In this document: piece by piece, positions 11,476 through 12,408 of the stretch
Layout: every line of letters begins with the position of its first letter
Position numbering within the stretch: position 1 is the stretch's first letter
Origin: Perkinsus olseni
Lineage: Eukaryota
Length of the DNA stretch: 35,976 nucleotides
Reading direction: 5' to 3'
NCBI GenBank assembly: GCA_013115125.1
Contig: JABANN010000353.1
Location: 1-35,976 of the forward strand
Position numbers and translations under genes: made by a program
Notes under the pieces: model-generated
What the model saw: only the letters and a program-made list of their open reading frames with translations
What the model was told of the DNA's origin: nothing
Databases searched by the model: none

Positions 11476-12408
11476 TCAGCAGACTTCGACCCTGCACAAC
11501 TCGCCTGAAGCCTGGGACGATTCAGCATCGTAAGACACATGAACAGTGTGAGAAAATAGGTCAGCTTGCCCTGCGACCATGATTGCAGGAGCGAATCACT
11601 CACCCTCGCTTCATCCGTCGTCGTTCCGTCCTCCCAGTGCTCTTGTGTGTTGCCCCAGCCCCCTCTCCAGGAGTCCCTCCACGAGCTGTCCGTCCACTGA
11701 CTACGGCTCCGTGACCAGCTCCCGTCGTATGACCACCAGCCATCATTGCTGCTGTCCCAGTTGCTAGACCACGGCCGGCTTCTCTTTCGCCATCCCCAGT
11801 CCCCACCCCAGTCGTCCCACTGGGCTTGTTGACGCCCCTGGCATTACGATCACGTATCGACCAAGAGCAGCATACCACAGCTACCCAGTCGCCACTGAGC
11901 CAGTCTCACTTGCCTGCGATTGTGATGATGTTGATGCTTCGTGCTGGGCCGGAGGTTGGCCGTCTCGAGTGTCCCACTTGTGGAGGGCTTGCTTCCAGAT
12001 TCGCAGTCGACTGAGGCATACAGAAAATTCCTCCAGTCCCAACAGGCTATCAAGTATGACACGAATGCAATCGGAAATTCGAGAGACTCACCCTTCAAAC
12101 GCCCTCTTGGAGTCCGTCCCGTCCACTCGAGGGGTCGAGGGATGTGACGGGTCTCTCGGGTTACGATCACACCTGTGCAGCCAAGGCACGAGTCACAATC
12201 ACCCTCGGTGTACTTCTATCCACCAGGACTTCTCGGAACCCTCAGAAACCCCTGATCTCCATCGACTAGATCTTCGTTATGGAGAAGCACGAGCTGCTCA
12301 CTTTCGAACATGCCTGACGTAATTCTGGTACCCTCTGGTCATCTTAGCGATCCCTATCTGCTTCTCACGCTGGGCGAGGATCCGTTCCATGGATGCTCGT
12401 TGCGACAT
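11476..12408 (-). CDS. SLBP: Histone RNA hairpin (stem-loop) binding protein homologue with Trp-rich C-terminal extension
   Basis: Exons 12408-12302, 12172-12092 and 12010-11914 splice in phase to MSQRASMERILAQREKQIGIAKMTRGYQNYVRHVRKCDRNPRDPSHPSTPRVDGTDSKRAFEGRLRIWKQALHKWD, matching the SLBP RNA-binding domain (RxKQI..GK.T.GY..Y, HPxTP, S+R.+D..++.W+..LH.WD). Exon 4 is 11837-11604; a tentative last exon is 11511-11476 (ASGELCRVEVC*). Confidence 0.9.

Follow-up and report, generated by a model that had tools for sequence, protein, structure and literature searches.

Among the closest known relatives of the gene considered here are the animal stem-loop binding proteins (SLBPs). Arg181 is the sole base-specific hydrogen-bond donor of human SLBP (PMC10388802, PMC4215118, PMC5429643), and a SLIP1-type translation-activation motif, W-x3-V-[ED]-x2-E, is given in the available portion of PMC3763545. 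According to the available text of a survey of protists (10.64898/2026.10.14.759114), SLBP and histone hairpins are widespread in these organisms, a G-C at stem pair 2 and a U at loop position 3 are called diagnostic of the hairpin, animal-type activation motifs are absent from all non-animal SLBPs, and the Rfam histone hairpin model RF00032 is weak outside animals. Trypanosoma SLBP2 works with EIF4E2 and PUF9 on S-phase mRNAs, as described in the accessible part of 10.1101/2022.05.10.491326.

For the perkinsids, the available portion of PMC6723414 reports canonical histone levels and 3' stem-loops on histone mRNAs in P. marinus, and no stem-loop on the histone mRNAs of dinoflagellates. The accessible parts of PMC3319573 and PMC4751559 mention neither SLBP nor a stem-loop, and no paper on a Perkinsus SLBP was found in the literature searched, which covers few subscription journals. 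That a perkinsid should have both SLBP and histone hairpins is as expected, and part of this is already documented. The initial annotation of the locus had drawn its interest from the dinoflagellates, which largely abandoned histone-based packaging, but that surprise does not apply to Perkinsus because P. marinus keeps canonical histones and stem-loops.

The window, by which we mean the whole stretch of DNA analyzed, comprises 35,976 nucleotides of Perkinsus olseni contig JABANN010000353.1 (assembly GCA_013115125.1). The locus is best explained as a functional SLBP-family gene of P. olseni or a very near relative, belonging to one of two classes of such genes in the genome. On the minus strand, exons at 12408-12302, 12172-12092 and 12010-11914 give one open frame through two GT-AG introns and encode a complete SLBP domain with the HPSTP and WKQALHKWD motifs, as had been proposed. 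The gene does not end at 11914, where it had been taken to stop; three further exons follow, so that the whole gene has six exons and encodes 249 amino acids. The features, listed in the direction of transcription, are as follows.

12302 to 12437, minus strand: exon 1, which holds the 5' leader, observed as far as 12437, and codons 1-36, starting at the ATG at 12408; helices A and B.
12354 to 12431, minus strand: upstream open reading frame of 25 codons, out of frame, beginning 23 nt ahead of the main ATG and overlapping the start.
11971 to 12387, minus strand: PF15247 SLBP RNA-binding domain, residues 8-76, split across exons 1-3.
12173 to 12301, minus strand: intron 1, GT-AG, 129 nt.
12092 to 12172, minus strand: exon 2, with the HPSTP loop (Thr49-Pro50, equivalent to human Thr171-Pro172) and Arg59 (equivalent to human Arg181).
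12011 to 12091, minus strand: intron 2, GT-AG, 81 nt, seen in run contigs.
11914 to 12010, minus strand: exon 3, with helix C (Trp68, His73) followed by a Q/S-rich linker.
11838 to 11913, minus strand: intron 3, GC-AG, 76 nt, joint in three of four runs, leading into the Trp-rich region.
11604 to 11837, minus strand: exon 4, low-complexity and rich in Trp, Ser, Asp, Gly and Arg, with 14 Trp between residues 102 and 166 and no assignment to a Pfam family.
11505 to 11603, minus strand: intron 4, GT-AG, 99 nt, joint in three of four runs.
11383 to 11504, minus strand: exon 5, start of a conserved acidic C-terminal motif (about residues 188-223); no Pfam family.
11174 to 11382, minus strand: intron 5, GT-AG, 209 nt, joint in two of four runs.
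11062 to 11173, minus strand: exon 6, with the rest of the acidic motif, the basic C-terminal end PRKKRKRF (11091-11068) and the stop codon (11067-11065).

The splicing pattern was taken from contigs of four runs (of 21 listed) placed on positions 10400-13000. Introns 1, 2 and 3 are each bridged by contigs in three of the four runs (X1, X19 and X2 for introns 1 and 2), which bears out the junctions 12301/12173 and 12091/12011 named by the initial annotation. X10 is the sole run recorded as RNA and covers intron 4 alone; the RNA status of the others is guessed or unrecorded, and the contigs of runs without recorded RNA status omit precisely the introns. Spliced contigs were found in all four runs, and these contigs cannot rank expression. 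An alternative minor acceptor of intron 1 near 12252 (12252-12301) occurs in one of the four runs, at a depth of 21 versus 64, and results in an early stop. Contig record 4 of run X1 spans the ATG of the upstream open reading frame, and this overlapping frame could damp translation of the SLBP gene. The frame-breaking splice form and the upstream frame are what one might expect of a decaying pseudogene or a chance splice model, but six exons in a single frame, five junctions in run contigs and an orthologue conserved region by region (described below) leave that explanation largely refuted and very improbable.

The transcript of the downstream MFS-like gene carries a Perkinsus L-type spliced leader attached at 10815 (run X2), with 18 bases matching the L-type spliced leader primer (PMC3101222). 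The organism had been called a probable perkinsid from the letters alone, and both this leader and the identity of the encoded protein to a P. olseni sequence agree with that assignment. In the other direction, ORF-like and repeat-like stretches at 13687-14546 and 15846-16241 lie within the span of the upstream phosphodiesterase gene, which suggests an insertion in an intron of that gene.

Over exons 1-3 the product is identical at 94 of 95 residues to the public P. olseni protein P0001, which matches PF15247 with 78.2 bits (cut-off 27) over residues 8-76 and profile positions 3-69 of 70, the significant SLBP match that had been anticipated. Scanned singly, each of the three exons matches PF15247 and no other family, in profile order (positions 3-29, 31-55 and 58-70); exon 1 by itself passes the cut-off (32.3 versus 27 bits), and exons 2 and 3 fall below it. 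Matches to the four SLBP sequences of the PDB had E values from 2.5e-12 to 8.4e-10. The fold predicted from an alignment with 47 homologues has pLDDT above 90 over 72 residues, with helices at 3-22, 25-33 and 58-73, and its closest structural match is human SLBP (4qoz_C, rmsd 0.9 Å). A fold predicted from the single sequence, and the structure search made with it, were uninformative. Because the P0001 match spans residues 8-76, the domain does begin at residue 8, about where it had been placed, but 21 of 140 Met-starting homologues, some of them perhaps fragments, also have it within about their first 20 residues.

RNA-contact residues (from PMC10388802, PMC4215118 and PMC5429643) were mapped by counting along an alignment to human 4l8r_C. 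Arg181 (R59) and Thr171-Pro172 (T49-P50) are kept, as are Lys146, Tyr151 and Arg163 of the phosphate pocket (K22, Y27 and R39), Trp190 (W68) and His195 (H73). Three substitutions are conservative (Trp183 to F61, Ile187 to L65 and Arg160 to K36). Tyr144 stacks on loop base 1; its place is taken by Ile in this gene, its orthologue and all three paralogues. Among 150 other matches (148 representatives and two fish proteins), 92 have Tyr or Phe at this position and 25 have Ile, so the position is variable across the family and the Ile is not decisive. A relaxed contact here would fit the A found at loop base 1 in two of the four histone hairpins, which is a hint only. The Gly that follows, in helix A, is Ala in this protein and in just two of the 150. 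The Trp/Asp end of helix C is nearer the family consensus in this copy than in the three paralogues. By domain, modelled fold and contact residues, the gene product is a true member of the SLBP family, with hairpin binding predicted. Four environmental proteins (P0002, P0003, P0004 and P0005) carry two tandem SLBP domains.

Beyond the domain and its Q/S linker, the protein continues with the Trp-rich region (14 Trp in 65 residues), the acidic motif and the basic end. Pfam scans of exons 4, 5 and 6 gave no family, an ESM Atlas search with the last 75 residues of the orthologue gave no usable match, and exon 5 is single copy in the genome. The P. chesapeaki orthologue is contained in the last 241 residues of a fused model, P0158, and its locus is syntenic, with MFS and phosphodiesterase genes likewise upstream. 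Identity to the orthologue is 61/77 in the domain, 6/24 in the linker, 19/51 aligned positions in the middle region (which has 11 Trp in 67 residues in P. chesapeaki) and 38/60 in the C-terminal 60 residues. Since the tail is kept by region in P. chesapeaki, it is under selection. From its pattern, we take PRKKRKRF to be a nuclear localization-like signal.

The gene is not hidden, as the initial annotation had it, because four of the seven public P. olseni models (P0001, P0156, P0157, P0161, P0162, P0164 and P0165) already bear a UniRef SLBP-domain name, histone RNA hairpin-binding protein. None of the seven has the Trp-rich frame or the basic C-terminal end, all seven miss the GC-AG intron 3, and three public models are fused to neighboring genes. 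P0158 of P. chesapeaki has the correct tail, yet is fused to the MFS and phosphodiesterase genes. The tail and the three paralogues, which the initial annotation missed, are more distinctive than the features it described.

The putative target is also present. A hairpin of six pairs with a 4-nt loop, consensus CAA-GGCGTT-NNTN-RRCGCC-ATC, lies behind genes for H3, H2A, H2B and H1 (46, 43, 59 and 51 nt past the stop, respectively) and folds at about -8 kcal/mol. In all four hairpins the second stem pair is G-C and the third loop base is U; loop base 1 varies between U and A. We examined 17 histone genes, 16 of them with downstream sequence, and found the hairpin in four of the 16. The contigs that carry these four do not exceed 1 kb, as would be expected for collapsed repeats, and none of the 12 on longer contigs has it. 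The genes without a hairpin include intron-bearing variants and the sole H4 found. The pattern is the familiar split of repeated canonical and single variant histones. One 1-kb contig (C1354, positions 1-1000, L011) holds tandem H3 and H2A genes, each with a hairpin, and probably represents part of a histone cluster that was collapsed. Retention of stem-loop-dependent control of histone mRNA, which had been suggested for this lineage, is supported by these hairpins; the idea is not new, as P. marinus stem-loops are described in the available portion of PMC6723414.

The search with the Rfam histone hairpin model that had been recommended gave a mixed result. Six RF00032 matches scored 19.9-23.3 bits, all below the cut-off of 34, and such scores mean little because a loose search gives matches in 14 of 14 control genomes; three of the top four nevertheless lie just behind the H2B, H2A and H1 genes. 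Matches on C2683 and C1548 were rejected, with no histone gene ahead of them. C1548 (L014) also has, around 63679, a 762-aa intronless open reading frame whose C-terminal part, judged by eye, we assume to resemble a telomerase-type reverse transcriptase. A pattern made from the top four matches fitted exactly at six sites, against none in the control and about 0.07 expected; two of the six were additional, one at H3 and one on C1149. A relaxed pattern gave 26 matches versus 6 in the control, and the seven that pair fully are the six already known and one on C2817. The background is three such hairpins in 72 kb of strand.

Covariation was rejected as proof of the hairpin, given that 33 of 500 shuffles reach the same level and the one double change comes from the two non-histone matches; the four histone hairpins show one-sided G-U changes only, with no double compensatory change among them. 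A covariance model searched on 24 sources recovers only its six training sequences. Metagenome loci with the hairpin pattern (at least 120) were also set aside. None had a histone among the tblastn matches listed and their median GC is 64%; they are therefore chance matches, and the word can arise in coding DNA.

The rest of the animal 3'-end machinery is not apparent. No RF00066 match to U7 snRNA was found at E ≤ 1 among the 65 of 3740 candidates scored, a search that a diverged U7 would escape, and by eye no purine-rich downstream element is common to the four hairpin loci. The SLBP protein has no match to W-x3-V-[ED]-x2-E, the nearest being W200-x4-V-E-E, one residue off. On present evidence, the gene does not appear to belong to a full U7-dependent animal pathway.

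The reading that we favor, with somewhat better than even confidence, is that the domain has the histone hairpin as its ligand, as it does in animals, that the tail is a docking surface and that the basic end suggests a nuclear copy. The three-helix N-terminal domain would bind CAA-GGCGUU-NNUN-RRCGCC-AUC at the 3' end of the repeated, intronless and presumably replication-dependent histone mRNAs. As in animals, Arg59 would recognize the G in stem pair 2, and binding would become tighter once Thr49 of the Thr-Pro motif is phosphorylated. The Trp-rich disordered stretch, the acidic motif and the basic C-terminal end may replace the animal flanks as a docking site for partners. The nuclear copy suggested by the basic end would mark histone pre-mRNA for 3'-end formation or export, with no recognizable U7 snRNA, and the three paralogues with a C-terminal domain would serve other steps.

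The intact binding residues would also serve if the protein bound the histone hairpin and silenced the mRNA in non-dividing stages, with its Trp-rich tail bringing in proteins for silencing or decay. Such a repressor or storage factor would be modelled on the SLBP2 of animal oocytes. The Trp-rich region has three GW and three WG dipeptides, which could be Argonaute-hook-like, and what is conserved there is Trp richness and not sequence. Piwi-domain exons occur on two contigs (C1637 and C1548, L064-L066), so that the genome has Argonaute-family genes. The orthologue, however, has just one GW and two WG, the basic C-terminal end kept in both species points to the nucleus, and spliced contigs in four of four runs do not suggest a narrow stage. 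The missing translation-activation motif would also fit repression, but it says little because such motifs are reported absent from all non-animal SLBPs. We judge this role unlikely.

A PF15247 profile search of the genome gave eight places, which resolve into four genes including this one. The other three, a tandem pair on C526 (L035) and an intronless copy on C2718 (L001), have the domain at the C-terminal end. The C2718 copy has motifs in common with the C526 pair and looks like a retrocopy. Two of the paralogues with a C-terminal domain have an N-terminal KLSW-x5-EE, loosely like the SLIP1-binding motif without matching it. Weak PF15247 matches on C52 and C2992 (E 0.06 and 0.36) revealed no credible gene on inspection. 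In a tree of 76 of 155 domains over 79 columns, from which the weaker matches P0071-P0150 were excluded, the three paralogues form one branch and this gene and its orthologue another (SH-aLRT 99 each). A single clade of all five was not rejected by the AU test (p 0.94), and the unconstrained tree search was poor.

The existence of three other SLBP genes tells against the hairpin-binder reading to the extent that they alone could serve the histone mRNAs. The copies with a C-terminal domain would then handle histone mRNA, and this copy would be an adaptor on other RNAs or RNPs, like Trypanosoma SLBP2. The inverted architecture, the family-less tail, the separate branch and the rare Gly-to-Ala change in helix A all suit such a repurposed paralogue, as does the trypanosome precedent in the available part of 10.1101/2022.05.10.491326. 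This copy nonetheless keeps the Arg that reads the base and, in full, the phospho-Thr pocket; the end of its helix C is closer to consensus than in the paralogues, and the genome, unlike that of trypanosomes, has histone hairpins. We regard repurposing as possible but doubtful.

Redirection to other RNAs had also been raised by the initial annotation. It is not needed to explain the gene, and the two non-histone hairpin matches that could speak for it are ambiguous. On C658 (L039, 97-117, minus strand), an exact histone-type hairpin lies behind or inside a non-histone spliced gene, 51 nt past a possible stop, which is a histone-like distance. With a different plausible splice the stop falls 7 nt from the hairpin, with a third the hairpin becomes in-frame coding sequence, and about 25 nt downstream there is an inserted repeat. 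The exon of this gene is, we assume, zinc-finger-like; a Pfam scan of it gave no match. The second copy, on C1149 (L038, 32577-32597, minus strand), is identical to that of C658 at 23 of 24 nt. It sits in a repeat relic that has a 33-bp tandem array and a 62-bp inverted repeat next to it, and it seems to fall inside an intron of a presumably ARF-GEF-like gene on the opposite strand. It was rejected as an SLBP target, being probably part of the relic, whose second copy is without the hairpin. That the genome contains a real non-histone target of the hairpin type seems to us rather unlikely.

A separate repeat, beginning TGTAGATTGG, is found at L067-L072 (the ends of C658, C2759, C2213 and C1137, and on C2517 and C3225), several of these places being contig ends. 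It is 100% identical in five places and possibly recently active, and we take it to be LTR-like.

A broader proposal would extend the preferred hairpin-binding role. SLBP would have split into two specialized classes, with the N-terminal-domain class at the core of U7-free making or regulation of hairpin mRNAs in a trans-splicing cell; the tail would recruit the cleavage or silencing machinery directly, and targets would reach beyond histones to include the C658 gene. Dinoflagellates would have started from this condition when they lost their histone hairpins. We consider the whole of this proposal improbable.

The locus bears on how protists without a recognizable U7 snRNA finish their hairpin-bearing histone mRNAs. 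It contributes a correct gene model of 249 aa, a set of four SLBP genes in two classes and an exact consensus for the hairpin. New in these are the conserved, family-less tail of the corrected model, the split of the paralogues and the consensus itself. On the line leading to the dinoflagellates, whose histone mRNAs are without the hairpin according to the available portion of PMC6723414, Perkinsus is the final branch that has ordinary nucleosomes.

Compared with metazoan SLBP/HBP (PF15247; PDB 4qoz, 4l8r and 4tux), the Perkinsus protein has the same three-helix domain, Thr-Pro motif, G-reading Arg and phosphate pocket, and the partner hairpin likewise has six pairs and four loop bases, here 43-59 nt past the stop. 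The metazoan domain is central, whereas that of Perkinsus starts from residue 8. Perkinsus also differs in the Ile at the Tyr144 position, in having no WxxxV[ED]xxE SLIP1 motif and no U7 match, and in adding a Trp-rich region and a conserved acidic motif of no family. Its hairpin stem reads GGCGUU, with loop base 1 either U or A.

The SLBPs of the protist survey (10.64898/2026.10.14.759114), as far as its available text goes, are alike in pairing SLBP with a diverged hairpin that has the G-C at pair 2 and U3 in the loop, in having no SLIP1 motif and in the sparseness of the U7 machinery. Perkinsids, dinoflagellates and apicomplexans do not appear by name in its main text, although its supplementary tables may list Perkinsus, and the available text describes no tail like the Perkinsus one. 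The SLBP1 and SLBP2 of Trypanosoma brucei, in the accessible portions of 10.1101/615351 and 10.1101/2022.05.10.491326, are alike in being more than one SLBP-domain paralogue, of differing architecture, in a trans-splicing protist. The kinetoplastid histone mRNAs are polyadenylated and SLBP2 acts with EIF4E2 (available part of 10.1101/2022.05.10.491326), whereas Perkinsus has histone hairpins.
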